A stretch of 64,000 nucleotides of DNA from Acidobacteriota bacterium (lineage in GTDB: Bacteria > Acidobacteriota > Thermoanaerobaculia > Multivoradales > J023): assembly GCA_039194425.1 (NCBI GenBank), contig JBCCVZ010000005.1, positions 293,144-357,143 of the forward strand. Direction: 5' to 3'. The notes beneath the pieces were generated by a model. It was given only the letters and a program-made list of their open reading frames with translations, made no database searches and was not told the DNA's origin. The position numbers and the translations under genes were made by a program. Position 1 is the stretch's first letter. Each line of letters starts with the position of its first letter. Positions 9,096 through 50,084 of the stretch are shown here, piece after piece.

Positions 9096-9101
9096 AGAAT
9101 C

Positions 9102-9133
9102 CGGCTGCGACGACCGGCCGATCGTCGCAGCCG
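9102..9133. terminator. 12-bp stem hairpin between convergent genes
   Basis: CGGCTGCGACGA / TCGTCGCAGCCG with an 8-nt loop. Confidence 0.6.
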
Positions 9134-9150
9134 ATCGGTCACCAGCTTGA

Positions 9151-9224
9151 AGGCACCCAGTCTCAAGGTGCTCAGCCTCAGGACACACAGCCTCAGGCCA
9201 CACAGCCGCAGGACACCCAGCTCA
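9151..9224. repeat. Degenerate 15-bp tandem repeat x5 (consensus about GGACACACAGCCTCA)
   Basis: Units at 9151, 9166, 9181, 9196 and 9211. Confidence 0.8.
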
Positions 9225-26165: not shown

Positions 26166-26272
26166 GATCATAGGGCTATTCGTGCCAACAGGAGTCGTTT
26201 CGCGTCAGTCTTCGAGAGAAGAAGACCGAGATCGTGGCGTCGGTTTGGGGGATTTGGTTGTCAGGAGGAGCA

Positions 26273-27574
26273 ATGGCCCAGTTTGCAGAGCGGAAGAACC
26301 CCCCAGACGTGCCGGGCGCGCTGCAGATCGACGAGGCTGCGCGCGACTGGCTGCAGTCGTGGACCGGCAGTCTCGGGCTCGACGGCGCTGGGCTCCGTCA
26401 TCGTTCGGGTGAGGCCAAGACCGGCGCTTCGTTTGTGCTCGAGCTCTTGCCCGACCCGCACGGCGCTTCGGGGGCGGCGGCTACTGGCGCGACGCCGGCG
26501 CATGAAGGACCGCTGCGGGTGACCTTCGAGGAAGAGGAGATTCTTCGACTGAGCGGCGACCTCTACGAGCGCCCGTCCCGCGATCGGTCTGGACGGGTCG
26601 GCGACCTCGCGGAGCCGCCCTGGTTCGCACGCTCGGCCTACCGCGTGTATCTGCGGGGTGTCGAGATTCGGGGTCGTGACACTGTCTTCAACTGCTTTCG
26701 GTGGCAGGATTCGGTGTGGGTCGTGTGCTCGGACCTCGTCTTGACGCAAACCAGCGTTCCGCCCTCGACCGAGTCGTTTCGAGACACGACCGCCGCTCTT
26801 CGAGGCGACTACATGCACGGTGCCGAGAGGGGAACGTTTTGCCTCGCTTGGACCGGTTCGGTCTTGCGGCGGGCTCTGGTCGAGATCGACAAGGTGACGG
26901 CGGTGGCCTGGCCCGACGCTCCGGATCCGGCGCGGACGATCGAGTCGGCTTTTCGCGCCGCCTCGTGGCGGGTCGAAGTCGAGCACAACTGCAGCTCGAT
27001 CGCTGACCCGCCGCACGGCGAGCTTGCGACGGACGAGTTCCTGAACGAGGCGGCCGATCGTTTCCGCAAGAAGCTCCCGGACACGGCCTGGCACTACTAC
27101 GTGCAGTGCCATCGCGGCCTGGCCGCGGCGCCTGACGGCTTCGGCCGATTGCTCAGCGACGGCGGTAGCGCGACCGAGCCCGCGCGCCAGGATGTCGTGG
27201 TCGCAGCCCATACTCGTTTGCCCCCGCCCCTGTCGGGACGCCTCCAAGATCAGCCGCTCTTGTACCTTCGTACCGTCGTCCACGAGCTCGGGCGCGCCGT
27301 GGGGTTCGATCGCAGCCCGGCGTCGGGCTGTACATTCATGCGCGATACGCGCCAACTGGTTAGCGCCTGCAAAACGGCCGAGTGGTCGTTTACCGAAGAG
27401 CAGATCCTGCTTCTGCAGCATCGACCCGACGCATGGATCCGACCGCATTTCCAGATGACGTCGGCCAAGGTTCCCCTGCCGACGAAGCTCGGGAAGTGCT
27501 TGCGGGGGTTGGTGGTGCGGTTGCGAAAGCGATGGCGCAAGCTGAAGCGCTTTGTGACGAGAGCCTCTCGATGA
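26273..27574 (+). CDS. Hypothetical protein with degenerate metzincin motif (pseudo-metalloprotease)
   Basis: RBS AGGAGG before ATG 26273; HELGRAVGFDR followed by a Met-turn-like TFM. Confidence 0.6.
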   Translation: MAQFAERKNPPDVPGALQIDEAARDWLQSWTGSLGLDGAGLRHRSGEAKTGASFVLELLPDPHGASGAAATGATPAHEGPLRVTFEEEEILRLSGDLYERPSRDRSGRVGDLAEPPWFARSAYRVYLRGVEIRGRDTVFNCFRWQDSVWVVCSDLVLTQTSVPPSTESFRDTTAALRGDYMHGAERGTFCLAWTGSVLRRALVEIDKVTAVAWPDAPDPARTIESAFRAASWRVEVEHNCSSIADPPHGELATDEFLNEAADRFRKKLPDTAWHYYVQCHRGLAAAPDGFGRLLSDGGSATEPARQDVVVAAHTRLPPPLSGRLQDQPLLYLRTVVHELGRAVGFDRSPASGCTFMRDTRQLVSACKTAEWSFTEEQILLLQHRPDAWIRPHFQMTSAKVPLPTKLGKCLRGLVVRLRKRWRKLKRFVTRASR

Positions 27575-30500
27575 AGCTCAGAGCACTCGCTGTCGTGCTC
27601 CTCGGCGCCACGTCGCTCGGTGCGCAGCCGAACGCGTTCAGCGCCGCTGAGATCGACCAAGCGATTGTCCGCCTGGCCGACGATGTCCGTTCCGACCGAG
27701 TGCTCGATCTCGAGTTTTGCCAACGTCTGCTCAAGCAGGTCGAAGTGCAGAACGGGAGGACGTCGAGCCGCTATGCACAGCTGCTCGAGCTGACCATCGA
27801 GGCGCGGATTCGGGACGGCGAGCGGCGCTCCGAGCAGCTCTTCGACATGGCGCTGGAGCTTGCTGAGCTCCGCGCGGTGACCAAGGACGAACAGCCGGAG
27901 TCCTACGCACGGGCACTGCATCTGCTCGGCCGCCTCGAGCAGCTCGGGGGTCGCTTCGACCACGCGCTTGAGTTTTACCAGGTGGCGCTCGACTTGCGGC
28001 GCACGCTCGACGGCTCGCCGCTTGAGATTGCGCGCACGTTCGAGAGCCTCGGCTCGGTACTCGACGATCTCGGCCGGCGCGCCGAAGCCCTGGAAATGCT
28101 CGAAGAGGCGCTCGAGATCCTCGACGCCGAGGGCGCGGGCGGCGAGGCTGCGCGGGTGCTCAACACGCTGGGCGGCACCCTGCATCGCCTCGGCGAGCAC
28201 GAAGAAGCCGCCGCGGCGTTCGCGCGCGCGATCGATGTCGGGCGCCAAGTGTTTGGCTCGCTACATCCGATCCAAGCGCGCAGCCATCACAACCTCGGCT
28301 ATGTTGCGCATGTCCTCGGCGACATCGAGCGCGCCGAGTCGAACCTGCGACAGGCGCTTGAGGTCCGAGTGCAGGTCCATGGCGAGGTCGACCCGGTGAC
28401 CGCCTCGAGCCAGGCGGCGCTAGGTGAGCTCGAGCACGACCGCGGGTTCTTGCACAAGGCACGAGAACATCTCGAGGCGGCCTGGGCGGCCCAGCGCGTG
28501 GGCCTCGGTGATGAGCATCCGCGCACCGTCGCCACCCTGTCGCGTCTGGGCGCTTTGCTCGCCGACCTCGGCCTCGGCGAAGAGGCCTTGGAGGCGCAGC
28601 TCGAGGCGCTGACGGTGTCGCGTCGGGTCTACCCGGGTGGCGATGTCTCTACCGCCGAGATCTTGCTCCGCTTGGCCGCTGTCGAGCGCGATCGCGGTGG
28701 GCTCGCGCCGGCGCGCCGGTATCTCCTCGAAGCTCAGGAGATCTATCGCCGAGGCACCAAGGATCGTCATGTCGGCGCAGCGCGCGTCGAGTGCCGGCTC
28801 GCCGCGCTCGACGAGGTAGCCGGCGACTCGGTCAAGGCGGCGCACGGCTTCGCCCTCTGTGACGCCCTACTCGCTCGACGAGACCTGGAGCACCCCGGGC
28901 GGATCGACTCTCTGCGGGGTCTATCGCGCACCGCACGTGAACTCGGGACGGCCAGCCGCTACCTCCAGCGTGCCGAGATCCTGGCTCGCTCGCTGGTCGG
29001 GGAGATCCACCCGCTGCGGAGCGAAATTCAGGTCGAGAAAGCAGTCTTGCTGGCGCGAGGCGGCGAGGTGACGGCGGCACTCGCCGAAGCGCTGACGGCG
29101 AGCGCGCGCGCGCGCCAGTGGGTGAGGATCGGCGTTGCCGGCCTGTCGCACCGGGAAGCGGACCGTTTCGAGCGCCTGGGGCGTCGCCCACTCGACCTCG
29201 TGGTCTCGCTCGCGAGGCGACACCCCGAGGTGTCCGTCGGGGCAGTTTGGGGCGAGGTGATCGCGGCGCGGAGCCTGGTGCTCGACACTCAGGTCTTTCG
29301 CGCGCGTCTAGGGCGGGAGTGCGCCGGTACCGCGCGTCGCGCCAAGCTCGAAGAGCTCGATCGGTCGACGCAGCGACTTGGTGCCCTCTGGCATCGCGGC
29401 TCGGGTGTCCTCCCGGAGGACTCGCGTGCTCGCCTCGCCACGAGTCTGCGGCGGCGCGCCGAATCACTCGAGCGTGATCTCGCCGCCGATCCCGACTGCC
29501 CCATGCCGGAGCTGCAGGAACCGAGCCTCGACGCCGTGCGCGAGCGTCTGCAGCAGGTTGGGGACGCGGCGATTCTCTTGGCGACCGCGCGCTATACCGA
29601 TCTGCTCGCGGACAGTGGCGCCGAGCGCGATCGCTACGCCGCCTGGATCGCGACGCCGGGCGCGATGCCGCTGTTCCTCGACCTTGGACCGGCCGCGGCG
29701 CTCGAGGAATCTATCGACACCTGGCGCAAAGTGATGTTGGGAGCGCTCGAAGGACGCGTCGACGAGGCCGAGGTCGAGGCCGCACGCGATGGTCTCAGCG
29801 CCCTGCTGTGGCGTCCCTTGGCACCGCATCTTGAGAGCCTGACTGCTGAACGAGCGAACGATCCCATCGAGCCCGCCGAGCGGCTGCTCTGGGTGCCCGA
29901 CGGCGCCTTGCGGGGCGTGGCGCTTCCCGCGCTACGCGATGAGCGAGGCCGAGATCTTCTCGACGTGTTACCTCCAGTCGTGCGCCTGGCGAGTGAGCGT
30001 GATCTCGTCGCCACGGTCTCACCCAAAGCCCACGGGCGAGGTCTGTTGGCTGTCGGTGCACCTCTCGCAGCGCCCATGGAGGTTGACACAGGCGCTGAGC
30101 TCGTCGATCCCGAAGCGCCGAGGCTACCCACGCTCGAGGGTGCCGAGGCCGAGGTGCATGCCATCGTACGGTTGTGGAACGAGAGCACTACGAACAGCGC
30201 CTCGGTCGCCGCTGTTCTCCTTGGCCCGACCGCGACCGAGGAAGCTGTACGGCGGCATGCGGTTGGCGCCGAGGTCTTGCATTTCGCCACCCACGTCACC
30301 CGAGTCGAGGTCGACGATCTACTGCTCGGCTCGGCTCTCGTGCTCACCGGCTTCGGCAGCTTCGATCGCTCCGGCCAGCCCGGAGACGACGGCTACTTGA
30401 GCGCCGCGGAAGTCGCCCGCCTCGATCTCGGCGCGACTTCTTGGGTGGTGCTCTCGGGCTGTGAGAGCTTCGGCGCGTTGCAGCGCGCCTTCCGTTTCGC

Positions 30501-30741
30501 CGGTGCGCGCGGACTGGTCACCAGCCTGTGGCCAGTCGGTGATCGCTGGGCGATGCAGTCGATGCGAGCGCTCTACCAGAGCTTCGTGCGTCATGGTGAC
30601 ATGCCGCTCGCAATCCGCGACGCAGCTCTCGAGGTGCGGGCGGAGTCTCTGCGCACGAGTGGTCGGAGTCTCCCGGAACGCTGGGCTGCGTTCGTTGCCG
30701 AGGTCGGAGATCCCGTGGTCAACCTGAGGAGGACACGATGA
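27571..30741 (+). CDS. Secreted TPR-repeat + CHAT (caspase-like) protease
   Basis: Signal peptide MKLRALAVVLLGA; TPR repeats (HPIQARSHHNLG, HPRTVATLSRLG); VPDGAL, HFATH, LSGC and SLWPV motifs. Confidence 0.88.
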   Translation: MKLRALAVVLLGATSLGAQPNAFSAAEIDQAIVRLADDVRSDRVLDLEFCQRLLKQVEVQNGRTSSRYAQLLELTIEARIRDGERRSEQLFDMALELAELRAVTKDEQPESYARALHLLGRLEQLGGRFDHALEFYQVALDLRRTLDGSPLEIARTFESLGSVLDDLGRRAEALEMLEEALEILDAEGAGGEAARVLNTLGGTLHRLGEHEEAAAAFARAIDVGRQVFGSLHPIQARSHHNLGYVAHVLGDIERAESNLRQALEVRVQVHGEVDPVTASSQAALGELEHDRGFLHKAREHLEAAWAAQRVGLGDEHPRTVATLSRLGALLADLGLGEEALEAQLEALTVSRRVYPGGDVSTAEILLRLAAVERDRGGLAPARRYLLEAQEIYRRGTKDRHVGAARVECRLAALDEVAGDSVKAAHGFALCDALLARRDLEHPGRIDSLRGLSRTARELGTASRYLQRAEILARSLVGEIHPLRSEIQVEKAVLLARGGEVTAALAEALTASARARQWVRIGVAGLSHREADRFERLGRRPLDLVVSLARRHPEVSVGAVWGEVIAARSLVLDTQVFRARLGRECAGTARRAKLEELDRSTQRLGALWHRGSGVLPEDSRARLATSLRRRAESLERDLAADPDCPMPELQEPSLDAVRERLQQVGDAAILLATARYTDLLADSGAERDRYAAWIATPGAMPLFLDLGPAAALEESIDTWRKVMLGALEGRVDEAEVEAARDGLSALLWRPLAPHLESLTAERANDPIEPAERLLWVPDGALRGVALPALRDERGRDLLDVLPPVVRLASERDLVATVSPKAHGRGLLAVGAPLAAPMEVDTGAELVDPEAPRLPTLEGAEAEVHAIVRLWNESTTNSASVAAVLLGPTATEEAVRRHAVGAEVLHFATHVTRVEVDDLLLGSALVLTGFGSFDRSGQPGDDGYLSAAEVARLDLGATSWVVLSGCESFGALQRAFRFAGARGLVTSLWPVGDRWAMQSMRALYQSFVRHGDMPLAIRDAALEVRAESLRTSGRSLPERWAAFVAEVGDPVVNLRRTR

Positions 30742-31109
30742 AGAAGGAAGAGGACAGACAAGGCGCAGGAACGCTGGCCAACCAGGAGGCGGCGGCTCCC
30801 GAGGCGTCGGTTTCCGAGACGAGAGAGACGCCCGCGATGTCGTTCGGGGCGCGGCAGCTGCGCAGCGAGAAAGGGCCGAGGAGCGTTCGCGTCGTTCACG
30901 CCGGCGATGGCAGGGCGACCCTGCTCATGCCCCGCGAGATGGTCGAGGCGTTGGTGGTGGGGTTGCAGGGCAAGGACTTGTCGGACCCCGGAAGCCTGCC
31001 TCCCGGCGTGTCTCTCGACGCCGAAGGCAACCTGGCTTTCTCGATGGGCGAGAGAAGTGTCACCTCGATGATCTCGTGGGCGCGGATCGACGACGTCTGC
31101 TTCCCCTGA
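30738..31109 (+). CDS. 123-aa small protein, candidate RiPP precursor
   Basis: RBS GAGGAGG; ATGA overlap with the CHAT gene; 8 bp upstream of the rSAM gene; C-terminus SWARIDDVCFP. Confidence 0.6.
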   Translation: MKKEEDRQGAGTLANQEAAAPEASVSETRETPAMSFGARQLRSEKGPRSVRVVHAGDGRATLLMPREMVEALVVGLQGKDLSDPGSLPPGVSLDAEGNLAFSMGERSVTSMISWARIDDVCFP

Positions 31110-31117
31110 GCCGGACG

Positions 31118-32149
31118 ATGACCACCGCGACCAGCCTCGATCCAGTCGCGTGGGACGATCGCTTGCCGTACCTGGCGAACGACGTTCTGCGCCTGATCGT
31201 GATGCCTACCGAGCAGTGCAACCTGCGCTGCGTCTACTGCTATGAGTCGTTCGAGATCGGCCGGATGGGCGACGATACCGCCCAGGGCATTCGGCGTCTG
31301 CTGACGCGGCGAGCGCCGGGCTTGAGCCGGCTGCGGCTCGACTGGTTCGGCGGCGAGCCGCTGCTCGCCGCCGACCGTATCGAGGAGATCCAGGAGCATG
31401 CGAGCGCGCTCGCGGCGCGCCACGGCTTCACGCTCGAGGCCGAGGCGACCACCAATGCCGTGATGCTCGACGCCGAGAGGCTGCACCGCTTCGCCGCGCG
31501 GGGGCTGCGCCGCTACCAGATCTCGCTCGACGGCCCGCCCGAGGAGCACGACCGCAAGCGCACCGGCGCCGGTGGTCGAGCGACCTTCGCGACCATCTGG
31601 CGCAACGTGCGGACGGCGCTCGAGAGCGATCTCGAGCTCGAGATCCTGCTGCGTGTGCATGTCGACCGCGACAACGCGGCGTCGATCCCGCGCCTGCTGG
31701 CGATGTGCCGCGACGAGCTGCCGTGGGACGAGCGGATTCGGCTCTTCCTGCGTCCGCTGTCGCGCCTCGGAGGGCCGAACGACGCGCGGCTGCGCATACT
31801 GGGGGCCGAGAAGGACCAAGTCCTCGCCGACCTGCGCGAGCAGGCGCGGCGGCTCGGCCTCGGCGCCGGCTACGCCGGGCCCGAGGGCGTCGCGGTGTGC
31901 TACGCGGCGGCGGCCAACGCCTTCGTCGTGCGTGCCGACGGCGGCGTGTCGCGCTGCACCGTGGCGCTGGACGACCCGCGCAATCGCATCGGTCGGCTCA
32001 CTCCCGAGGGCAGGCTCGAGCTCGACACCATGGCGCAGGAGCCGTGGCTGCGCGGGCTGCTCGACGGCGACGCGCGTGCTCTGACGTGTCCGCTGAAGGC
32101 CCTGCGCTCCGACACGGCCGGCGCTTCGCCGCTGCGCGTCGTGGCGTGA
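31118..32149 (+). CDS. Radical SAM enzyme with reduced SPASM/twitch-like C-terminus (putative peptide maturase)
   Basis: PTEQCNLRCVYCYE (CxxxCxxC), WFGGEPLL, TTNA and ISLDG motifs; C-terminal CYA...RCTV...CP. Confidence 0.9.
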   Translation: MTTATSLDPVAWDDRLPYLANDVLRLIVMPTEQCNLRCVYCYESFEIGRMGDDTAQGIRRLLTRRAPGLSRLRLDWFGGEPLLAADRIEEIQEHASALAARHGFTLEAEATTNAVMLDAERLHRFAARGLRRYQISLDGPPEEHDRKRTGAGGRATFATIWRNVRTALESDLELEILLRVHVDRDNAASIPRLLAMCRDELPWDERIRLFLRPLSRLGGPNDARLRILGAEKDQVLADLREQARRLGLGAGYAGPEGVAVCYAAAANAFVVRADGGVSRCTVALDDPRNRIGRLTPEGRLELDTMAQEPWLRGLLDGDARALTCPLKALRSDTAGASPLRVVA

Positions 32150-32161
32150 GCCCGAGCTCCG

Positions 32162-34423
32162 TCAGCGGGCCTGCCCGGGCGCCTCCGCGGGCGCGTCGGC
32201 CGGCGGCGGCAAGCAGTCGGCGAGGGCGCGCCAGGCGCGGCGGCGGCGGAGCGGGGCGAACGCCGGCTCGACCATGGCGAAGCTGAGCGCTTCGGCGGGC
32301 TCGTCGACGCAGGCGCGCTCGAGCAGTGCCTGGGCGGCGGTGCGGTCGCCGGCGAGCGCCGCCCAGAGGGCTTGCTCGGCGGCCACCGGGTGGCCGGCGT
32401 CGGCGGCGGCGCGCCACGCCTCACGCTGACGCGCGAGGGCCTCGGTGAGGCTCACCGGCGGCGGCTGGCCGTGCACCGAGAACGCGACTCCGAGGTGCTG
32501 CAGGGCCTCGTCGTCACGTCCCTCGGCGAGCAGGGCACGCACCAAGAGATCGTGGGCGGTGCGATGGTACGGGTAGAGCTCGAGAGTGTCGCGTGCGTGC
32601 TCGATCGCCTCGCTCGATCGGCCGGCGAAGTAGTCGAGCGCGATGTCGAGCGCCCGCGTTTCTGGCCCGAGGGGGTCGAGGCGGCGCGCCTGCTCGAGAT
32701 CGCGTCGCGCCGCCTCGTGCTGGCCGCGCGACGATGCGAGCGCGGCGCGCGCGAGTAGCGGCGGATGCCAGCCGGGTGCGAGCTCGACCGCGCGCTGCGC
32801 CTCGCGCGCGGCGGTTTCCCAGTCGTGGTGGAGCAGGCGGGCGACTCGGCACAGCGCCAGGTGCGCCGAGGCGAGCTCGGCGTCGAGCTCGAGGGCATGG
32901 CGCGCGGCCGCTTCCACCGCCGGCAAGGCGGCGTGCGGCGTTTCGCCACGCAGGCGCCAGTGTGCCTCGGCCAGAGCGGCGTGGGCGAAAGCGTGCGACG
33001 GCAGCCGGGCGGCCAGGGTCTCGAGCTCACGAAGCGCGCGTCGAGACGCCGCGATCTCGCCCTGGTAGAGGCGGCCGTAGGCGATGAGCAGGGCGACCCG
33101 GTCTTCCGCCGGCAGAGGATCGAGCGTCGCGGCGGACGGGGGCGGAACCGTCTGGGTCTGCAGCGCCTGAGCGACATGATTCGCAACCTCGTCGTACCAG
33201 GCCGGCAACTCGTCGAGCCGGGGCTCGAACGTTCCGGCCCACAGGTGCCGCGAGATCGCCGTGGGCTCGAGGCGTAGCGTGAGATGCAGGCGATCGCCGT
33301 GGCGTGCGAGGCGCGCACGCAGTACGTAGTCGGCACCGAGCGCCGGCCACGAGGCGTCCGATGCGACGGAGCGGCGGACGGTCGACGAGGCGAGAACGGT
33401 CGGCGCACCGCCGAGCCGCGCCGCCAGGCGCCGAGTCAGCAACTCGTGGACCGCGACGCCGAGAGGCTCGGTGTCAGTGTCGACTCCGACGATCTCGAAC
33501 GGCGCGATCGCGAGCATCGCTTCGGTCACCGTCGGCGCGGCAGGCGGCGACTCGTTGGGGCGCGCCAGCGCCCAGGTGACGATCAGGGCCGCGAACAAGG
33601 CGCCGACGGTGGGCACCAGGCGGTTCCACCGCCGAGCCCGCAAGGAGGCATCGATCGAGCCGAAGAGTCCGGTCGGCGTGAACGCGCCGTCGGCGCGGTC
33701 GGTCAGTGCCTCGGTTCCACGGTCTCGCGTGTCGGTCAGGCGTGGGGCGGGCACTCTGGGGCTCGAGCTGGTCGCGAGACCTTGTGGGCCGACGCCAGAT
33801 GGCGTGACGTCCGGAGGGTTGGCCGGGCGTGGGGCTACGATCCGTAGGTCTTCATCTCGAGAGTCTGCATCTCGAGAGTCGGCGGCTCGAAGATCGGCGG
33901 TCTGGCGATCGCCTCCGCGCGCGTCGGCGCTCGGTGGGTCCGCGGCTTGTCGGCTGTCGACCGCAACTGCGACTGCGTGCTTGGCGGTCGAAGACCCCAC
34001 GGGTGTGTCGAGCCCCTCGGAGCGGTCTGGCAAGAGCCTTTCGACTGCTTTCGGCGAGCTCGCTTGGACGCCGGCACGGGTGACCGGGGACAGAAAGCGG
34101 TAGCCGACCCGCGGCACAGTCTCGACGAAACGCGGCGCGCCCGCGTCGTCGTCGAGAGCCATGCGGATCTTGCGGATCGCGAAGTTGATGCCCTGGTCGT
34201 GGTCGAGATAGCTCTCACCACCCCAAATGTGCTCCTTCAGCTGCTCACGGCTGACGACGCGCCCGGCATTCTGCAACAGCAGCTCGAGCGCCCGAGCCGG
34301 CTGTGGCTGCAGCGCCACTGCCGCGCCGCGCGCCAGCAGGCGAGTCGGCCGGGTGTGCAACTCGAACTCGTCGAATCGGTAGATCGGCGGAGCGAAGTCG
34401 GTGGGCCTTCGGGTCGGAGCCAC
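32162..34423 (-). CDS. CadC/OmpR-type winged-helix regulator with TM, TolB-like and TPR domains
   Basis: YRFDEFEL, VVSREQL...IW, AIRKIRMAL and ETVPRVGYRF motifs; TM segment; TPRs; pentapeptide low-complexity linker. Confidence 0.88.
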   Translation of the reverse strand: MAPTRRPTDFAPPIYRFDEFELHTRPTRLLARGAAVALQPQPARALELLLQNAGRVVSREQLKEHIWGGESYLDHDQGINFAIRKIRMALDDDAGAPRFVETVPRVGYRFLSPVTRAGVQASSPKAVERLLPDRSEGLDTPVGSSTAKHAVAVAVDSRQAADPPSADARGGDRQTADLRAADSRDADSRDEDLRIVAPRPANPPDVTPSGVGPQGLATSSSPRVPAPRLTDTRDRGTEALTDRADGAFTPTGLFGSIDASLRARRWNRLVPTVGALFAALIVTWALARPNESPPAAPTVTEAMLAIAPFEIVGVDTDTEPLGVAVHELLTRRLAARLGGAPTVLASSTVRRSVASDASWPALGADYVLRARLARHGDRLHLTLRLEPTAISRHLWAGTFEPRLDELPAWYDEVANHVAQALQTQTVPPPSAATLDPLPAEDRVALLIAYGRLYQGEIAASRRALRELETLAARLPSHAFAHAALAEAHWRLRGETPHAALPAVEAAARHALELDAELASAHLALCRVARLLHHDWETAAREAQRAVELAPGWHPPLLARAALASSRGQHEAARRDLEQARRLDPLGPETRALDIALDYFAGRSSEAIEHARDTLELYPYHRTAHDLLVRALLAEGRDDEALQHLGVAFSVHGQPPPVSLTEALARQREAWRAAADAGHPVAAEQALWAALAGDRTAAQALLERACVDEPAEALSFAMVEPAFAPLRRRRAWRALADCLPPPADAPAEAPGQAR

Positions 34424-34647
34424 GTGTCTGCCTCCAGCGCGGTCCGGGTCGGGGCCCGGACCCAGCGGTCGACGAGAAGCACCGGTGGCGGTTGCGGCAC
34501 CCTCGTGTAGAGAAATAGCAATGTATCAAAATCTAAGGTCTCACATCGAGACCGAGCCGGGCAGAGCGGGTTTGTCGTCCTTTCGTGTACGATGAAGCCC
34601 GGTCTTTGTTGCACGAAAACTCTATCCCTGCTCGTATTATCCCTCTG

Positions 34648-38100: not shown

Positions 38101-38740
38101 CGTGCTCGAAGTTCGCGACAGCGGAGAAGGGATCGAGGGGGAGCTGCTCGAGCACATTTTCGAGCCGTTCTTCACTACCAAGGAGCGCGGCCGGGGCACC
38201 GGCCTTGGCTTGGCGACGGTCTACGGCATCGTGCGGCAGAACGGTGGTGCGGTCGACGTCGACAGCACGCCCGGGCGCGGCACGACCTTCCGCGTCGTCT
38301 TGCCGGCCGCGGTCGGCGAGGTGGCCGAGCCGTGGAGCCGGCCTCGTCCGTCGGTCGAGATCGGGGGCGGTGAGGGGCTCTGCGTGTTGGTGGTCGAAGA
38401 CGAGCGGTCGGTGCGGACCTTGCTCGACAACCTCCTCGGCCGAGCCGGTTACCGTGTGACCACGGCGGCCGACTGCGCCGAGGCGTTGGCTAGTCTCGAG
38501 TCGATCGAGGAGCCCTTGAGCCTGCTGATCGCCGATCTCGTGATGCCCGGAGTCAACGGCCGCGAGGTCGCCGAACGGGTCGTCGCTCGCCGACCCGAGG
38601 CGCGGGTGCTCTTCATGTCCGGCTACCCGGCGAAGGTCCTCGGCCAGCGCGGCATTCTGCCCGCCGGCGCCGAGTTCCTGCCCAAGCCGTTCACTCCCCA
38701 GATGCTCTTCGATGCCGTGCAGGAGACTCTCGCGCGATGA
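35117..38740 (+). CDS. Hybrid sensor histidine kinase (beta-propeller Reg_prop repeats, Y_Y_Y, HisKA, HATPase, REC)
   Basis: Repeated GL..D..G.LW.GT motifs; LAGGVAHDFNNLL, NLAVNARD, PFFTTK, GTGLGL; REC motifs DLVMP and KPF; start may be downstream. Confidence 0.93.
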   Translation: MGSFVVTWSFRGSRRGPVEGFGGVWGLAWSMLCAIHLVVVSAAAQQLDLRHYDQADGLPQSQILTLERDQLGYLWLGTFSGLTRYDGADFDTWTTDDGLRANTVFQLTVAPDGRVIVHSADSVCVVDPGRLDVMPSGSAGGDAIACHPFDLGSVRGLAIDPDGTIWAPTDRGLFALEVPGPSGGEASERLYGLADGLPSLDLRDATVDADGTVWIGTAGGLVRLAAGRFETADGALGTAAITFVAHGPPGIVVGTEDAGVFVRRGSETTAVPLPAVVEDTAFFDAAFDHFERLWIATGRGVVRVDGNDSRLFGRQSGLPSSLVREIEFDGEQVLWLGTDDGLDKLVPGPFATYAMSEGLPNPMVRTLAVGPQGRLWVGTRDGVAVGGVEGFDEIPLRGIDDHRVYGLAAAEAGMLIGTRDGLLWWRGGEIERRWRRGDDGLQSDFVTSLFADGERVWVGTDRGMGWWHEGRYEFLDRPELADSFVMKIRRDRRGRLWVATTSGAFVLEAPERGADSPLRRLGEADGLTRQAIWDLDVDAEGGVWLATNGDGVFHVTAEEDIAHYAVADGLTDPFVWQSLVDTDGAVWLYTNRGLHRFAGGEFTHFGPGEGLSVLEGSATASLVGPDGALWFGTPRGVVRYERDLAPPPLEPPRVVIQSAHSERLGRLESGASVPWSFGGFTLHFAGLSLRDEASVRYRWRIVGGEWSEGAWSAPVVERSLRFASLAPGLHRIEVDAANDAGWSDAPARFELRVTPAPWQTVPFRVGLALVAVGIVLGAVRLRMRRLENERSRLETLVAERTAELEAKTRSLEREIGERTEAERARRSLEERLRQSEKMEAVGRLAGGVAHDFNNLLTSIYGYTELLLAETEPESPQQVDLEEVRRATERATKLTQQLLAFSRRQVIEPVVLHLDPVVLDLVRMLERLLGEDIDLETRLEADPDLVRVDRNQLEQVLVNLAVNARDSMPRGGRLEIGTRFEPEARGDFDGAPGPAVVLEVRDSGEGIEGELLEHIFEPFFTTKERGRGTGLGLATVYGIVRQNGGAVDVDSTPGRGTTFRVVLPAAVGEVAEPWSRPRPSVEIGGGEGLCVLVVEDERSVRTLLDNLLGRAGYRVTTAADCAEALASLESIEEPLSLLIADLVMPGVNGREVAERVVARRPEARVLFMSGYPAKVLGQRGILPAGAEFLPKPFTPQMLFDAVQETLAR

Positions 38741-39351
38741 CGCTGACGACGATCGAGCGCGCCCCGGGTCGCGCCGAGGCGCTGGTCCGTCGCTGGTACC
38801 AGCCGGTCCGCGGCTACTTCCGCGGCCTCGGCCTCTCGCTCGACGAGGCCAAGGACCTCACTCAGGAGACATTCTTGCGCGCCACTCGCGCCGCCGACGA
38901 CTATCGCGGCGGCCTCGACGAGGCGAGCTGGATCTTCACGATTGCCGACAACGTGTGGAAGAACGAGCTGCGGCGCCGCGGCGCGCAGAAACGTGCCGCG
39001 GACACGGTGTCGCTCGAGAGCAGCGCGCCGGGTGACTATGACGAGGGCGAAGCGTGGCTCGACCCACCGGCACCGGCCGCCGGGCCGCTCGATCGGGCGC
39101 TCGATCGGGAGCGTCGGGAGCGTCTCGAGAGCGCCATCGCCACCTTGCCGCCGCGGATGCGCCGCTGTTTCGAGCTGCGGTTCGTGGAGCAGATGAAGTA
39201 TCGTGAGATCGCCGCGCTCGAGCAAGTGAGCGAGAGCACGGTGAAAACGCAGATGTTCCAGGCGCGCCGCAGGCTGCGCGAGCTGCTCGACGACGACAGC
39301 GCGTTCGCCACGGCGGCCGACTCCCGCGACGACTTCGAGGAGGCGATGTGA
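38737..39351 (+). CDS. ECF-type RNA polymerase sigma factor
   Basis: DLTQETFL, WIFTIADN, LPPRMRRCFELR, YREIA and TVKTQMFQARRRL motifs. Confidence 0.93.
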   Translation: MTLTTIERAPGRAEALVRRWYQPVRGYFRGLGLSLDEAKDLTQETFLRATRAADDYRGGLDEASWIFTIADNVWKNELRRRGAQKRAADTVSLESSAPGDYDEGEAWLDPPAPAAGPLDRALDRERRERLESAIATLPPRMRRCFELRFVEQMKYREIAALEQVSESTVKTQMFQARRRLRELLDDDSAFATAADSRDDFEEAM

Positions 39352-40091
39352 GCACACCCTCCGAGCCTTGGCGTGACGCCTTGTCCGCCGTGTCCCGCGA
39401 ACGCGCCGCGCGTGCGCCCGAGGTCACGGTCGCCGAGCTCGTCGCCTACCGTCGCGGCCGGCTCGCCGAGGACGACGCCAATCGGGTGCGCGAGGCGCTC
39501 GCCGCGCAGGCGTCTCTGCGCGCGCTCTACGCCGCGGTGCCGGCGGACGACCCCGAGCCGGTAGTCGACGATCCCGAGGTCGACGCGGCGGTCGCGTGGC
39601 TCCGAGAGCAGTCGGAGGGCGCGGACCGGGTCGTCGCGATCGACACGCGGCGCAGCGGCACGCCTTGGCGCACGGTCCTGGCGACGGCCGCGCTCGCTCT
39701 GGTCGCGGTGGCGACGGTCTTCGTCTTCGGTCCAGGGGCCGAGAATCCGCGTTTTGAGTTGGTCTTCGGTGTGCAGGATGAGGGCGTCCGCGGAGGCGGG
39801 CCGACGGTAAAGACGATCGAGGTGGAGCCGACGCGACCGTTCGTTCTCGTCGTGCCGGACGACCTGCTCGACGACGGGTCGTGGCAGGTCAAGCTGTGCG
39901 GTCCGATCCAGCATGTGCCGAACCGCCCGGACTGCGACGATCCGATCCTCAAGCACCCGGTCGACGCCGAGCATCGGGAGGTCGAGGTCGGACCGCTCGA
40001 TGCCGGGTACTACGTCGTCTTGGTCGAGGAGACCGAGGGCGCGAAGTTCCATTCCATGGTTCTCGAGGTGGTCCTCGACGACGACCGATGA
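39348..40091 (+). CDS. Putative membrane anti-sigma factor
   Basis: Coupled to the sigma gene (GTGA overlap); ASD-like ELVAYRRGRL; single TM; C-terminal extracytoplasmic domain. Confidence 0.7.
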   Translation: MSTPSEPWRDALSAVSRERAARAPEVTVAELVAYRRGRLAEDDANRVREALAAQASLRALYAAVPADDPEPVVDDPEVDAAVAWLREQSEGADRVVAIDTRRSGTPWRTVLATAALALVAVATVFVFGPGAENPRFELVFGVQDEGVRGGGPTVKTIEVEPTRPFVLVVPDDLLDDGSWQVKLCGPIQHVPNRPDCDDPILKHPVDAEHREVEVGPLDAGYYVVLVEETEGAKFHSMVLEVVLDDDR

Positions 40092-43000
40092 TCGCGGACT
40101 GGCCTCGAGCAGGGCAGCACGCACTCCGCCGGGACCTCATGCGCCTGCTTGCCGGCCTCGGGCTCGTCGGCCTGGCTGCTGCTCTTGTCTGTGGTTCCGA
40201 GGAGCCGGGCGTGGGGCTCGAGCTCGGTCAGCGGGAGTCGACCCAGGCGCTAACGGCCGGCCAGCAGCGCGAGCATCTGGTGGATCAGAGTTCGGACCGA
40301 GACGAGTCGGTCGTCTGCTTTGTCCAGTCGTGGCGACCGCATCGCGTGGACGCGGCGAGTGTGCGCCGCGTCGGTGGGCTGACGCTGCTGGTGACGACGA
40401 GCTCGATTCTTCGCGTCGACGCGCTGGGCGACGCCGGCACGGGGGGCGAAGTCGATCTCCTGTGCTCCGCTGCCACGCTCGCCGCCGCGCGCCGGGTCGA
40501 GGCGCTCGGCGAGCTCCTCGACATCGCCGAACGCCTGCGCGCCATGCCTGTGTCGAACGTCGCGGCGGCGGACTGGATCGATCAGACCTACGAGGCCGTC
40601 GCGCACGGTTTGAATGGCCTCACCGACGCCGACGATTCCCGATGGTGGCGACAGGCGGCGGGGGAGGTGACGCTGCGGCGGGCTCGCTGGCGCGCCGTGC
40701 GCGGTCACGCCAAGCTCGCTGACGCGCTCTTCCGGCGCGCCGCCGACAAGCTGGCGGCGGGCGGCGCCGTCGAGCAGGGGCATGCGGCGCTCCTGGTGGG
40801 AGTCAGCGACTTGCGGCGTCTCGGTCGCCTCGAATTGGCCTGGAAGCTCGCGACGACCGCGGTCGAGCGCGCCGAGGCCCTGGCAGACGACCGCGACGTC
40901 GACCCCGACCTCGCGCTCGAGCTACAGGCTGCTGCGTACGATCGCCTGGCGCGAGTCGAGCTCGACCTGCGCGCGCTGCAGTCTGCCCTGGGGCACTACC
41001 GGCGTGCTCTGGCGCTCGACCAGCAGCGGATCAAGCGGCTGCTCGAGGAGCCGGACGGGTCTCACGCCGGGGCGTCGACGTCCTCTCGCCGTCGCTGTGG
41101 TGTTCCCGGAGCTCAGCTGCCACTTGAAACCGTGATGTACGAGGAGGCGTGCGCTTTCGACCTCGCGCCGGCCGCCTTCACGTCCGGAAAGGGCGGCGTG
41201 CCGGGGTCCGTCGACCTGGCGCGCCGCCATCGGCGGGTTGGCGTGGCGCACCTCCAGCTCGGAGACTTCGACGACGCCATCCACTCCTTCCAGTGTGCCC
41301 TGCACTGGCGGACCGCCGACACGCGGTGGAACACGGTCGCTGGCGCCTGCCAGGGACTTGCTGATGCAATGCGAGAGCGCGAGGAACTCAATACGGCGCA
41401 GCAGATTCTCGAGGTCCTGGTCGAGCAGCCGGGCTCGTCGGCCGACCTCGCCGATCGGGAGAGGCAGCTCGGCCTGCTCGCCTGCAATGACGCCGAGCGC
41501 TCACCGACGCAGCGCCTCGAGGCTGCGCGCGCGCATCTGGCGCGCTCGCTCGCTCACGCCGATCACGAAGCGCTGGGCGGTTTGCGGGTCGACCTGCAGA
41601 TGGAACGCGCCGAGCTCGAGCTGTCGTCGCCCTGCGCCGATCCGCGCGAGGGTGACCTCAAGAGCGCCGCACGGGCTCTAGCCGACGTGGCGTCGGCGCC
41701 GGAGTCCGTGCTGACGCCGGCCCGTCGTGCGCACCTCGACTTCCTCCAGGGACACCTCGCCGAGGCGCGAGGGGACCTCGAGACCGCGGCCGCTGGCTTT
41801 GCTGCTGCGGCCCGGCGCCTCGATCGACTGCTGTCCGCTCCCGACACGTCGCTCCACCGCGCCATCGCCTCGATGCACCGTGCCGCGCGGGGACGGGACG
41901 AGAGAGTCGATCTCGCGGCGCGTGCGCGGGTATACCGGGAGGCGGAGATCCGTCTGCGATTGCGGCGGGGTACCGCTGAGAGCTCCGAGGTGTCGGCGGC
42001 CCTGGCCGAAGAGACGGCCGCAATGGCGCTCGGCTGGATCGGGCGCTCGGAGCTCTGGTGGCAGGCACGCCGCGCAGCCCGGGGCGCAAACGAGTCGAGG
42101 GGGCATGCGGCGCTCTCCGCCGATCTCGCAGGGGACGAGCTCGCGGCGTGCGGCACCAAATCTGTCACCAAGGCCGACCACGCAACCGGGGGCGACGACC
42201 GCGCCTGCCTCGACGCACTGCGTGCGCGCCTGCCAGACGACACCACCGCGTTGGTCTACTGGTACGGCGAGTCGATCGTCTACGCCTGGGCGCTGCGCCG
42301 CGAGCGCGTGCACTTTGCCTCGCTCGAACGCTTGCCCCTCGACAAGGCTCTGGGCAAGCTGCAGAAGGCGATGCAACCAGGCGCCGAGGAGGACGAGTTC
42401 GATGAACCGCTCGACGCCCTCTCGGCACAGCTCCTGGAGCCCTTCTCTGACTCGATCGACGCCTCCGAGCGCCTACTCGTCGTCCTCGACGGACCGTTGC
42501 ACGGCGTCCCCGTCTGTGCCCTCCGGCGCACCTGGCGCGACGCGGACCCACCCCTCGGGGGTGAGCCCGCGCCGCCGCTGATCGCGAGTCACCGCGTCGA
42601 GCGCACCGCGTCGCTGCCGGTGCACCTGGCGGCGCCGCAGCGTCTGCACGAGGCTCCTGGCGCGGAACGCACCGCGCTCCTCGTCGCACCGTTCTACGAC
42701 GGCTCGAACCACTGGCGGCCCCTCGACGGGCCAGAGCGCGAGGTGGCGGAGCTGGCGCTGCGCCTCGAGCCGGCGGCCGAGGTCGAGGTCTTGCGTGGCG
42801 ACGCGGCGACCAAGTCCGCGTTCCTCGACGCGCTGCCGTCGGCGAGGTGGGTCCATTTCGCCGGCCACGCCGACGGTTCGCTGCGCCACGCCGACGACGC
42901 CGTGCTCGCCCTGTCGCCGGGCCCCGCGGGTGACCGCGAGCTCCGCGCGGCGGAGATCGCCTCGCTCGAGCTGAGCGCCGAGCTGGTGGTGCTCGCCGCC

Positions 43001-43300
43001 TGCCGCAGCGGCCTCGGCGAGGAGCTCGACGGCGAAGGACTCTTCGGCGTCGCGCGCGCCATGCGCCGCGCAGGCGCACGGGCCGTCGTCTCGACTCTTT
43101 GGCAGATCGACGACGAGGCGACCGTTCCCTTCGTCCTCGACCTCTATGACCGTCTGCTCTCCGGCGCGTCGCCGTCGTCGGCGCTGCGTCAGACGCAGAT
43201 CGAGGCCGCGCGGCGAGGCATGGCGACTTCGGTGTGGGCGGCGTTCGTGCTCGAGGGCGACGGAGCGCCGCCGCTGGTCTCCGACCCGTCGGGTTCCTGA
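40088..43300 (+). CDS. Exported TPR + CHAT (caspase-like) protease
   Basis: Hydrophobic N-terminus ending ALVC; helical repeats; LDGPLHGVP, HFAGH, LAACRSGLG...GEG, STLWQI and WAAF motifs. Confidence 0.9.
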   Translation: MIADWPRAGQHALRRDLMRLLAGLGLVGLAAALVCGSEEPGVGLELGQRESTQALTAGQQREHLVDQSSDRDESVVCFVQSWRPHRVDAASVRRVGGLTLLVTTSSILRVDALGDAGTGGEVDLLCSAATLAAARRVEALGELLDIAERLRAMPVSNVAAADWIDQTYEAVAHGLNGLTDADDSRWWRQAAGEVTLRRARWRAVRGHAKLADALFRRAADKLAAGGAVEQGHAALLVGVSDLRRLGRLELAWKLATTAVERAEALADDRDVDPDLALELQAAAYDRLARVELDLRALQSALGHYRRALALDQQRIKRLLEEPDGSHAGASTSSRRRCGVPGAQLPLETVMYEEACAFDLAPAAFTSGKGGVPGSVDLARRHRRVGVAHLQLGDFDDAIHSFQCALHWRTADTRWNTVAGACQGLADAMREREELNTAQQILEVLVEQPGSSADLADRERQLGLLACNDAERSPTQRLEAARAHLARSLAHADHEALGGLRVDLQMERAELELSSPCADPREGDLKSAARALADVASAPESVLTPARRAHLDFLQGHLAEARGDLETAAAGFAAAARRLDRLLSAPDTSLHRAIASMHRAARGRDERVDLAARARVYREAEIRLRLRRGTAESSEVSAALAEETAAMALGWIGRSELWWQARRAARGANESRGHAALSADLAGDELAACGTKSVTKADHATGGDDRACLDALRARLPDDTTALVYWYGESIVYAWALRRERVHFASLERLPLDKALGKLQKAMQPGAEEDEFDEPLDALSAQLLEPFSDSIDASERLLVVLDGPLHGVPVCALRRTWRDADPPLGGEPAPPLIASHRVERTASLPVHLAAPQRLHEAPGAERTALLVAPFYDGSNHWRPLDGPEREVAELALRLEPAAEVEVLRGDAATKSAFLDALPSARWVHFAGHADGSLRHADDAVLALSPGPAGDRELRAAEIASLELSAELVVLAACRSGLGEELDGEGLFGVARAMRRAGARAVVSTLWQIDDEATVPFVLDLYDRLLSGASPSSALRQTQIEAARRGMATSVWAAFVLEGDGAPPLVSDPSGS

Positions 43301-47184: not shown

Positions 47185-47207
47185 CCGCTCACAACCTCGG
47201 AGACGAC

Positions 47208-49184: not shown

Positions 49185-49247
49185 CCCTCGCGCGCTTGTC
49201 GTATGCTCGGGGTTCCGATCCCGATCCGCCAACCGTGGAGGCCCGCG

Positions 49248-50084
49248 ATGTTCCAGAGACTCTCCAACAGCTGGGAGCTGGTGAAGGCCAGCGCTCAAGT
49301 TCTCAAGGCCGACAAGGAGCTGATGGTTTTTCCGCTCCTCTCGTTCCTCGGCCTGGTCGTCACCTGTGTCCTCTTCTTCGTGCCGGCCTCCGCCTTCGCC
49401 TTTGGCGGCGAGGCCAGCCAGGCGATGGAAATCGTCGCCTACGTCGCGCTCTTCGTCTTCTATGTCGCTTCCACCTTCGTCGTCGTCTTCTTCAACTCGG
49501 CGCTGGTCGGCGCCGCGCTGATTCGGCTCGACGGCGGCGACCCGACGGTTGCCGATGGTCTTCGCATCGCACGCCAGCACCTCGGCTCGATCTTCGCGTG
49601 GTCGGTGCTCGCGGCCACCGTCGGCATGATTCTGCGCGCCGCGCGCGAGCGCTCGGGTGGCCTCGGCCGCATCGTCATCGGCATGGTCGGCCTGGCCTGG
49701 AACCTCGCTACGTTCCTCGTCGTGCCGGTGCTGGTGAACCGGGGCCTCGGTCCGATCGACGCGTTGAAGGAAAGCGCCACCCTGCTCAAGCGCACCTGGG
49801 GCGAGCAGATTGCGGGCAACCTCGGCATCGGTGCCGTGTTCTGGGTGATCGGCATCGTCTACACCATCATCGCCGTACCGATCGTGATCCTCGCCGTCGG
49901 CACCGGCTCGATGGCGGTGATCGGCGTCGCCGTCGCCCTGATCGGACTCGGCTACGCCCTGATCACCCTGGTCTCGGCGACCCTCAGCGGCATCTACTCG
50001 GCGGCTCTCTACCGTTTCGCCACCGAGGGTGAAGTCGCCTACCTCGACCGTCGCCTGCTCGAGAACGCCTTCGTCGCCAAGTGA
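49248..50084 (+). CDS. Conserved integral membrane protein (DUF6159-like)
   Basis: SWELVKAS..VL..DKEL, ATFLVVPVL, LKRTWGEQ and AALYRFA motifs; multiple TMs. Confidence 0.65.
   Translation: MFQRLSNSWELVKASAQVLKADKELMVFPLLSFLGLVVTCVLFFVPASAFAFGGEASQAMEIVAYVALFVFYVASTFVVVFFNSALVGAALIRLDGGDPTVADGLRIARQHLGSIFAWSVLAATVGMILRAARERSGGLGRIVIGMVGLAWNLATFLVVPVLVNRGLGPIDALKESATLLKRTWGEQIAGNLGIGAVFWVIGIVYTIIAVPIVILAVGTGSMAVIGVAVALIGLGYALITLVSATLSGIYSAALYRFATEGEVAYLDRRLLENAFVAK

Follow-up and report, generated by a model that had tools for sequence, protein, structure and literature searches.

Background

The radical S-adenosylmethionine (rSAM) enzyme NxxcB is described as joining Asn-Cbeta to Cys-S by a thioether within an NxxC motif, with Asp tolerated as acceptor (PMC9389541, PMC8326336), and as having a SPASM domain that serves two auxiliary clusters (PMC11851443), while PapB is described as linking Cys to Asp (PMC9413430). 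On the protease side, Csx29 of the type III-E CRISPR 'Craspase' is presented as a protease of the caspase type that has a single dedicated partner protein as its target (PMC10028731), and the anti-sigma factor DdvA as a periplasmic TPR-CHAT protein with a trimmed active site, for which signal-induced self-cleavage is proposed (PMC11506125). Here we analyse a locus in which genes for an rSAM enzyme and a TPR-CHAT protein lie together. It occupies positions 26166-34584 of a 64,000-nucleotide stretch of Acidobacteriota contig JBCCVZ010000005.1, called the window throughout, and consists of five genes, coding for a protein with a degenerate protease motif (P1), a TPR-CHAT protein, a small open reading frame (ORF) of 123 codons, an rSAM enzyme and a regulator of the winged helix-turn-helix (wHTH) type with a tetratricopeptide-repeat (TPR) part.

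The initial annotation of the window, made from the letters alone, had proposed here a candidate new cluster for a peptide made on ribosomes and modified after translation (RiPP). The comparative evidence presented below supports this proposal, and the tests that we ran did not refute it. We consider it highly probable that the rSAM enzyme and the small ORF form an enzyme-substrate pair, and we lean slightly towards an [N/D]xxC thioether as their product. Its most likely form would be a link between Asp118 and Cys121, made by an enzyme free of a RiPP recognition element (RRE) and with a single auxiliary cluster, that is, NxxcB-like chemistry in a different enzyme architecture. The exported TPR-CHAT protein would then either process the peptide or sense it. 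The wider proposition, that 26166-34584 is an accessory island encoding a RiPP pathway of an undescribed sub-type, has in our estimate an even chance.

Results

A compact enzyme close to peptide maturases

The rSAM enzyme of the window is matched by Pfam PF04055 with 59.7 bits (cut-off 29.5). It contains seven Cys, namely residues 34, 38 and 41 of the CxxxCxxC motif, a poorly conserved one at 197, and then 261, 280 and 324. An alignment of 18 family members shows no variation at Cys34/38/41, Cys261, Gly275 and Cys280; at least 90% of the members keep Cys324, and a CX2CX5CX3C block was not seen in any of the 18. The SPASM motif consists of seven Cys serving two auxiliary clusters (CX9-15GX4C ... 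CX2CX5CX3C ... C), and in the twitch domain the C-terminal part is shorter and holds one auxiliary cluster, with CX9-15GX4C and a Cys further on. With only Cys261-x13-Gly-x4-Cys280 and Cys324 present, the enzyme falls outside the SPASM domain proteins, and its C-terminal domain fits a twitch-like one, in which the first half of the SPASM motif would make a putative cluster site.

No PqqD/RRE match was obtained with Pfam in any protein of the island, and in the model of the rSAM enzyme a single short helix stands ahead of the first core strand. The initial description of a compact, RRE-less enzyme of 343 residues with three C-terminal Cys therefore stands, the late Cys being those at 261, 280 and 324.

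Among the NCBIfam models the best match was TIGR04463, with 116 bits against a cut-off of 525 (PapB 86 against 340, SCIFF 50 against 425). None of the 18 family members reached any NCBIfam cut-off, the best E-value of 2.6e-44 being far below equivalog level. All of the top models (TIGR04463, geopeptide, CefB, Clo7bot, PapB, nif11-type and CcpM) represent maturases of Cys-rich peptides. The alignments to TIGR04463, geopeptide, CefB and Clo7bot begin only at profile positions 79-86, corresponding to rSAM residues 20-24, so that the N-terminal recognition domain of those maturases has no counterpart here. The AlphaFold2 (AF2) model of the enzyme (pLDDT 88) gave CteB, anSME, ChlB and SkfB as top folds, CteB being the closest solved structure both by fold (TMq 0.67) and by sequence (E 5e-25, over residues 26-198 only). 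The NCBIfam models and the nearest structure thus place the enzyme with peptide maturases and not with small-molecule enzymes, as the RiPP proposal had supposed. ChlB, in which by its description a cyclophane synthase and an alphaKG-HExxH domain are fused (PMC12912966), was also considered as a relative and was rejected, as it is not of the same family despite the fold match.

The family to which the enzyme belongs is large and well conserved, its members having 310-370 residues. A word search returned 676 relatives at E<=0.001, of which the best 120 share 42-52% identity, carry only PF04055 and are named at most 'radical SAM protein'. Searching one genome per prokaryotic species we found at least 600 matching stretches and relatives at no fewer than 591 confirmed loci, and the family-wide counts given below refer to the best 80 of these at least 591 loci. 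The lineages covered by the 80 include Actinomycetota, Cyanobacteriota, Pseudomonadota, Bacillota and Planctomycetota, and further Acidobacteriota, Bdellovibrionota, Chloroflexota and several archaeal lineages. Seven genomes of the window's own genus contained no strong match (best E 3.9e-16). No description of the family was found in the literature searched, namely the main texts of openly accessible papers.

Small ORFs with a common leader and NxxC cores

ORFs within 6 kb of the rSAM gene were clustered for the 80 loci. One cluster was present in 29 loci, and its single scanned representative was a C39 peptidase-ABC exporter; three smaller clusters were HlyD-type proteins and several others were small ORFs located directly upstream of the rSAM gene. 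These small ORFs have a leader segment in common, with a profile consensus of roughly '..IDEDGRIVIKDPELA..', which is often followed by a Gly-Gly site; such a site is carried by many of the family's small ORFs. In its second round the leader profile matched a same-strand ORF beside the rSAM gene in 37 of the 80 loci at E<=0.01, and no minus-strand ORF of these loci at the same threshold.

The part behind the leader was analysed in 46 ORFs from 38 loci, with the window included and contributing one Cys. At position -3 of the core Cys, Asn was found in 48 of 122 cases (background 5.6%) and Asp in 13 of 122 (background 4.9%), with Asn at any other offset reaching 16% at most, and NxxC was present in 32 of the 46 cores. 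Homologous rSAM enzymes are thus accompanied by similar upstream ORFs, recognizable by the leader motif and by the NxxC signature of the cores, and the same spacing appears in the window as Asp118-x-x-Cys121, which makes it a candidate for NxxC-type modification.

The spacing bears on what kind of link may be formed. It is that of the one characterised NxxC enzyme, and the present sequences do not separate a link to the alpha carbon from one to the beta carbon. The same cluster might perform another chemistry at its C-terminal Cys and Asp, either a sactionine-type link to the alpha carbon, as by QmpB, which is described as joining Asn-Calpha to Cys-S (PMC11851443), or oxidation of the Cys, as by anSME. 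CteB and anSME, the first and second fold matches of the window enzyme, both act at or near Cys, and one auxiliary-cluster motif in place of the two of NxxcB means that the mechanism may differ. Given the agreement in spacing, we regard such a different chemistry as quite improbable, and the thioether to the acceptor at -3 remains our preferred product.

Several loci of the family are worth recording for their own sake. A locus labelled Rubrivivax (L060:8937-9863, plus strand) has, behind one leader and upstream of the rSAM gene, about 10 tandem copies of a short unit that ends in Asn-x-x-Cys-Cys, and this ORF looks like a multi-core precursor. At an Acidobacteria-labelled locus (L053:8814-9938, plus strand) a long precursor-like ORF combines the leader motif with a poly-Gly stretch and many Cys-rich repeats. 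Three archaeal loci labelled Marsarchaeota or Thermoplasmata (L020, L035, L051) hold precursors of about 35-55 residues in which the same leader core and NxxC are visible by eye, with a major facilitator superfamily (MFS) transporter instead of the ABC exporter. Three Pseudoalteromonas loci (L052, L055, L073) have two different precursor families each upstream of the rSAM gene. Three loci (L067, L079 and L096; e.g. L079:11398-12069) carry a gene of the Flavoprotein family (PF02441) 3' of the rSAM gene; peptidyl-Cys decarboxylases are among the members of this family, a hint that a C-terminal Cys might be tailored further.

A clade of rSAM enzymes linked to CHAT genes

A tblastn search with the window CHAT protein detected a homologue beside the rSAM gene in 8 of the 80 loci, and the same search with P1 and with the small ORF gave no match in these loci. 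A ninth locus comes from G015, a relative in the window's own family, so that with the window there are ten of the CHAT type. In a tree of 81 rSAM rows all nine CHAT-linked rows (the eight loci and the window) fall into one group of 16, with an SH-aLRT value of 91, under the 95 mark. The CHAT label requires 4 changes on this tree against a mean of 8.7 after shuffling, and none of 500 shuffles was as low. Of the remaining rows in the group, one is a fragment at a contig end and one a Planctomycetaceae locus where an S49 peptidase is encoded; the others form a sub-group made up of one Terriglobia locus and four archaeal loci, three of the latter with an MFS transporter. The neighbourhood of CHAT and rSAM genes on which the initial proposal was built is consequently a recurrent one, confined among the tree rows to a single clade.

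The order CHAT, small ORF, rSAM is kept in nine of the ten CHAT-type loci, window included, and a small ORF lies between the CHAT and rSAM genes in eight of the nine others, the records being variously labelled as Acidobacteriota, Myxococcota, Planctomycetota, Omnitrophota and Eisenbacteria. In L034 the small ORF comes first, followed by rSAM, extracytoplasmic function (ECF) sigma factor, kinase and CHAT, and in G015 an intact metzincin of 703 residues is inserted between the CHAT gene and the small ORF. The other partners are listed in Table 1.

The small ORFs of this clade have 93-172 codons and are free of Gly-Gly sites. Of the 11 small ORFs at the CHAT loci, 9 have an [N/D]xxC motif whose Cys is among the final 15 residues, as compared with 24 of 585 control ORFs of 60-250 codons taken from nine loci (the window and the eight found by tblastn). 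The G015 ORF, of 142 residues, has one Cys, within D-I-P-C, one residue from the C-terminus, and resembles that of the window in the lone Cys, the Asp at -3, the aromatic residue that follows and the location at the extreme C-terminus. With neither a Gly-Gly site in the 123-residue ORF nor any C39 or ABC domain encoded by the island, the window does not belong to the double-glycine systems with a peptidase-containing ATP-binding cassette transporter (PCAT). PCAT-linked members of the rSAM family may already be listed in a published dataset that was based on ABC transporters.

Two loci of the clade show gene arrangements of their own. In an Eisenbacteria-labelled record (L025:4198-5193, plus strand) a second rSAM gene, coding for 331 residues, overlaps the start of the CHAT gene, giving this cluster two rSAM enzymes. 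In a Planctomycetota-labelled one (L031:7168-9605) the CHAT gene is read as overlapping ORFs, TPR at 7168-7986 and CHAT at 7824-9605, and may have suffered a frameshift or an assembly error.

The candidate precursor of the window

The 123-residue ORF has a G+C content at third codon positions (GC3) of 0.84 in both halves, as compared with 0.62 and 0.67 in the overlapping alternative frames, and therefore looks coding. Its only Cys belongs to the proposed core motif D-D-V-C, two residues from the C-terminus; hydrophobic segments and Gly-Gly sites are absent. Pfam gave no match for this ORF or for P1. It is single-copy in its genome, and a word search for homologues returned only the query. An earlier, seemingly significant match of this ORF to the leader profile was rejected as circular, the seed of that profile having included the ORF itself. 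Its assignment as a candidate precursor is based on position, coupling, coding signal and C-terminal motif.

The coupling is tight. The stop codon of the CHAT gene overlaps the start of the 123-residue ORF (ATGA at 30738), a further ATGA overlap lies at 27571, and 8 bases (31110-31117) separate the small ORF from the rSAM gene. Strong Shine-Dalgarno sites stand upstream of P1 and of the 123-residue ORF. GC3 is coding-like in all four plus-strand genes (0.79-0.90, halves of the small ORF included), and all five ORFs of the island are intact with coding-type GC3. Our ORF coordinates, both overlaps and the gap agree with the initial report of four co-oriented, coupled genes.

The TPR-CHAT protein

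The CHAT domain, residues 742-1043, scores 125 bits against a cut-off of 24, and the TPR_12 and TPR_10 matches of Pfam lie within residues 86-531. His904, His908 and Cys964 are invariant across 10 aligned CHAT proteins of the CHAT-type loci. By this score and by the His-Cys dyad the protein would be a caspase-like protease (PF12770) of putative activity.

The start of the protein resembles a signal peptide. It holds the protein's most hydrophobic 19-mer, with a Kyte-Doolittle (KD) value of 1.29 at residue 5, below the membrane-helix threshold of 1.6, and similar basic-then-hydrophobic starts occur in most of the 10 aligned proteins. P1, the small ORF and the rSAM enzyme have no hydrophobic segment. 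The protein had been called secreted, which fits this N-terminal segment, and to judge from it the protease probably works outside the cytoplasm.

A structure prediction for the complex of CHAT residues 190-1056 with the 123-residue ORF gave, without controls, a score of 0.00, which is evidence neither way. A role of the CHAT protein as a maturation protease rather than a sensor is possible, and we put it somewhat short of an even chance.

CHAT genes elsewhere in the genome

The host genome (8.1 Mb) has a very large signalling and protease repertoire, with 39 CHAT-domain, 118 Pkinase and 48 Sigma70_r2 matches. As many as 17 of the 39 CHAT matches have a Sigma70_r2 match no more than 6 kb away, where 500 random placements gave 2.7 on average and 8 at most, although the CHAT matches are not independent because some neighbour each other. 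Enrichment of Ser/Thr kinases near the CHAT genes of the genome was likewise considered and none was seen (6 of 39 against 6.2 expected). The CHAT gene of the island is one of the weaker of the 39 matches, at rank 24, and is separated by 8,988 bases from the nearest Sigma70_r2 match, which goes with the next CHAT gene.

This next CHAT gene is in the window too. At 38737-43300 an ECF sigma factor gene (38737-39351), an ORF of 247 codons (39348-40091) and a second TPR-CHAT gene (39881-43300) follow in a row; the ORF overlaps the stop of the sigma factor gene, has no Pfam match and is possibly an anti-sigma factor. The row is an example of the sigma-linked setting in which 17 of the 39 CHAT matches are found. 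Further on, at 45010-50084, come a Peptidase_C14 caspase of 724 residues, a fusion of CHAT with FGE-sulfatase (689 residues), which is unusual, and a DUF6159 protein.

Such surroundings suggest that the whole locus may be a peptide-signalling circuit, in which the modified peptide would be a signal and not an antibiotic, the periplasmic TPR-CHAT protein a peptide-activated sensor or regulatory protease, and the output the wHTH-TPR regulator here and ECF sigma factors, anti-sigma factors or Ser/Thr kinases in sister loci. Besides the excess of CHAT genes near Sigma70_r2 and the row of sigma factor, 247-codon ORF and TPR-CHAT genes within the same window, this agrees with a sigma factor right after the rSAM gene in L034, L048 and L013, and with a Pkinase gene in L021, L027, L034 and L088, joined to DUF4384 in the first three. 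The ToxR-like regulator of the island has a periplasmic TPR part by prediction, and the TPR-CHAT of DdvA, for which signal-induced cleavage is proposed in the source (PMC11506125), has an incomplete active site, as the window CHAT, which is likewise deleted beside the dyad. The genomic association of CHAT with sigma factors and the case of DdvA make the sensor or regulatory role a serious rival to that of a leader protease. The island CHAT itself, however, has no ECF sigma gene within 6 kb and neither an anti-sigma domain nor a membrane helix, and a regulator beside a biosynthetic cluster is a common finding that does not require the product to act on it. Loss of both the C39 exporter and the Gly-Gly site in exactly the CHAT clade is more simply taken as a change of leader protease. 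We consider the signalling circuit unlikely, and continue with the leader-protease reading.

P1, a pseudo-enzyme of the metzincin type

With HMMER, in 1.84 billion representatives, P1 has 143 relatives at E<=1e-3 and 33 at E<=1e-10, mostly of 650-730 residues; a word search returned only P1 itself. In an alignment of 26 rows HExxH is found in all 25 relatives and the third His of HExxHxxGxxH in 24 of them. P1 retains the H-E, has Arg in place of the second and third His, and is at its C-terminus about 270 residues short of the relatives. Pfam Matrixin is weakly matched by 20 of the 26 family members and not by P1, and the AF2 model of P1 (pLDDT 78) matches the catalytic-domain folds of adamalysin, ADAM and archaemetzincin. 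Two of three zinc ligands being lost on a metzincin-like fold, P1 is a pseudo-enzyme, which bears out the initial 'pseudo-protease'. By hydropathy it appears to be cytoplasmic.

P1 aligns with an intact protein of 739 residues encoded upstream of the CHAT gene in L018 (E 8e-8). At E<=1e-8, with three candidates scored per genome, its family occurs in 7 of 301 genomes of the same phylum. A general tie of this metzincin family to CHAT was considered and is unsupported, since the lone strong full-length match, in G255, had neither CHAT nor rSAM nearby by tblastn.

These features invite the question whether P1 and the CHAT protein, one of 39 paralogues, belong to another system and are bystanders of a RiPP unit of two genes, or whether the island is in decay and has lost its product. 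P1 is catalytically dead and truncated, its intact relative in G255 has no CHAT or rSAM gene beside it, and the island CHAT has active-site deletions and ranks only 24th among the CHAT matches of its genome. Set against this are the overlap of the CHAT stop with the precursor start, the order of CHAT, small ORF and rSAM conserved in nine of ten loci under several phylum labels, and the intact state and coding-type GC3 of all five ORFs. We hold both possibilities for very improbable, and retain the view of a functional unit of CHAT, precursor and rSAM genes.

The regulator and the limits of the island

In the wHTH-TPR protein of 753 residues Pfam finds Trans_reg_C at residues 34-110 and a weak TPR_19 match. 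It has one membrane helix at residues ~268-288 (nucleotides 33560-33622), with a KD of 2.09 at 269-287. With this predicted topology it resembles one-component regulators such as ToxR/CadC, the TPR part being putatively periplasmic. Orthologues in the genus were looked for and none was found, just paralogues of 33-34% identity. Similar wHTH proteins adjoin the precursors in L052, L055 and L073, where a divergent winged-helix regulator of ~690 residues resembles the N-terminus of the 753-residue protein.

The limits of the locus were examined on the obg-nadD-rsfS-sigma-54-activator backbone, taken from five genomes of the same genus. In G006 and G002 the activator is directly followed by a large histidine kinase (starting at window position 35117) and in G001 by a DUF309 gene (window position 34585); in G007 the contig stops after the activator, and in G005 the region is otherwise arranged. 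The five-gene island is absent from the same site of the backbone in three of the five genomes. P1, the CHAT gene, the small ORF, the rSAM gene and the 753-codon gene had no match in the five backbone stretches, and 26166-34584, the 753-codon gene included, is therefore accessory DNA. The sigma-54 activator is backbone and lies outside the island. A sigma-54 promoter upstream of P1 was sought in 26166-26272 and rejected for want of a match, and over the whole window the motif occurred 36 times (up to 2 mismatches) against 46 expected; with no match before P1 and no excess in the window, control by the neighbouring activator is unsupported.

No transporter domain was found with Pfam or NCBIfam in any of the five island proteins, in agreement with the initial remark that the locus has no transporter.

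Table 1 Features of the island (positions in the window) and partner genes at CHAT-type loci (our own handles for loci and genomes)
Feature	Position or locus	Strand	Remark
P1 gene, 433 aa	26273-27574	+	start at ATG after AGGAGG
Degenerate P1 zinc motif, H-E kept, second and third His replaced by Arg	27281-27313	+	
TPR-CHAT gene, 1056 aa	27571-30741	+	Pfam TPR_12, TPR_10, CHAT
Signal-peptide-like N-terminus of CHAT protein	27571-27639	+	basic start, then hydrophobic run of ~14 residues
Predicted catalytic His908 codon of CHAT	30292-30294	+	
Predicted catalytic Cys964 codon of CHAT	30460-30462	+	
Small ORF, candidate precursor, 123 aa	30738-31109	+	position, coupling, GC3, C-terminal motif
Proposed core motif D-D-V-C (Asp118-Cys121)	31089-31100	+	two residues from C-terminus
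rSAM gene, 343 aa	31118-32149	+	Pfam PF04055
Radical SAM cluster motif CxxxCxxC (Cys34, 38, 41)	31217-31240	+	family alignment
Auxiliary-cluster candidates Cys261-x13-Gly275-x4-Cys280, then Cys324	31898-32089	+	family alignment
wHTH-TPR regulator gene, 753 aa	32162-34423	-	convergent to other four genes
Metzincin partner	window, L018, G015		
S41 peptidase partner	G015		
S8 peptidase partner	L027		
S49 peptidase partner	L031		
Second rSAM partner	L025		
Ser/Thr kinase with DUF4384 partner	L021, L027, L034		
Sigma factor partner	L034, L048; also L013		in L013 rSAM on short contig, no CHAT gene seen

Discussion

Every chemical and proteolytic step of the mechanism that we propose is inferred. The substrate would be the product of 30738-31109, which the cytoplasmic rSAM enzyme, being RRE-less, would bind directly. 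Cys121 would be held by the enzyme at the free iron site of one auxiliary Fe-S cluster, whose ligands would be Cys261, Cys280 and Cys324; a hydrogen would be abstracted from Asp118, and a four-residue thioether ring would then close to Cys121 (-2 Da), as in the chemistry of NxxcB. In most of the family the C39-ABC exporter would subsequently cut the leader at Gly-Gly. In the CHAT clade, where exporter and Gly-Gly are gone, the exported TPR-CHAT protein, translationally coupled to the precursor, would serve as extracytoplasmic leader protease. P1 would be what is left, without activity, of a metzincin that two sister loci have in intact form, and the membrane-anchored wHTH-TPR protein would regulate the island. 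That the secreted TPR-CHAT protein matures the thioether peptide or is switched on by it, with the ToxR-like regulator closing an extracytoplasmic signalling loop, we offer only as a tentative extension, on the unlikely side.

A number of observations weigh against this reading and concern both of its halves. On the side of the peptide, the 123-residue ORF has no significant match to a leader profile built without the window (E 0.81); it is the best of the 139 window ORFs against the profile, through two weak pieces in the wrong order. It has no BLASTP similarity to the small ORF of G015 and is like it only in the last few residues, and its acceptor is Asp where the family norm is Asn. On the side of the protease, the window CHAT has deletions next to both catalytic residues (10 residues directly after the Cys and ~40 after the His), so that it is possibly inactive or regulatory. 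It looks exported, with the rSAM enzyme and the precursor cytoplasmic and no exporter in the island. For its paralogues signalling roles are indicated, CHAT being common in this genome and clustered near ECF sigma genes, and genes for ECF sigma factors, anti-sigma factors or Ser/Thr kinases adjoin the rSAM gene in relatives from the clade.

The large unnamed rSAM family extends over Streptomyces, cyanobacteria, Pseudoalteromonas, Acidobacteriota and archaea, and has a clear precursor signature in its leader and NxxC cores. Of the published rSAM-RiPP datasets, association with an RRE is described as the selection criterion of one and an ABC transporter nearby as that of the other (PMC10288494); the clade of the window, having neither, would slip through both filters. 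The recurrent coupling of TPR-CHAT and precursor genes provides a testable substrate or ligand for a class of proteases with few known bacterial targets. If the proposal is true, CHAT proteases and RiPPs would for the first time be connected in function, no such link being described in the literature searched, and the many orphan TPR-CHAT proteins of the periplasm that go with ECF sigma factors would gain a natural class of ligands or substrates. Should a single three-Cys auxiliary site prove sufficient for closure of a thioether, the picture of sacti- and ranthi-synthases would become simpler.

Comparison with known systems

Among TPR-CHAT proteins, Csx29 has the same domain order as the window CHAT. 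It differs in being cytoplasmic and RNA-activated through Cas7-11, and no Cas domain is present in the five island proteins. DdvA, as far as its description goes, is alike in the extracytoplasmic TPR-CHAT, the His-Cys dyad and the trimmed active-site region. In contrast to it, the window CHAT has no zinc-binding anti-sigma domain, no membrane helix (no 19-mer reaches KD 1.6) and no adjacent ECF sigma gene, and is coupled instead to genes for a peptide and an rSAM enzyme.

The wider rSAM family mostly has the layout of PCAT systems, with Gly-Gly leader, C39-ABC and HlyD. The clade of the window has neither C39-ABC nor Gly-Gly, and a TPR-CHAT gene stands directly before the precursor instead.

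The best structural match of the enzyme, CteB (SCIFF/thermocellin maturase, PDB 5WGG/5WHY), forms thioethers on Cys peptides, like PapB (freyrasin). CteB has 453 residues with extra N- and C-terminal parts, compared with 343 in the window enzyme, and the match is confined to the core; with respect to PapB and SCIFF the window enzyme scores far under the family cut-offs. NxxcB with its substrate NxxcA, from a RaS-RiPP of Streptococcus orisratti, has the same N-x-x-C spacing in an rSAM family, D-x-x-C in the window, whereas its hosts, leaders and partner genes differ from those found here. By its description NxxcB is set apart by a two-cluster SPASM domain, against CX13GX4C with one further Cys, and no N-terminus of RRE length, in the window enzyme. 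The rSAM family of the window is therefore NxxcB-like in its probable activity, and is not part of the NxxcB family, with its two-cluster SPASM domain.

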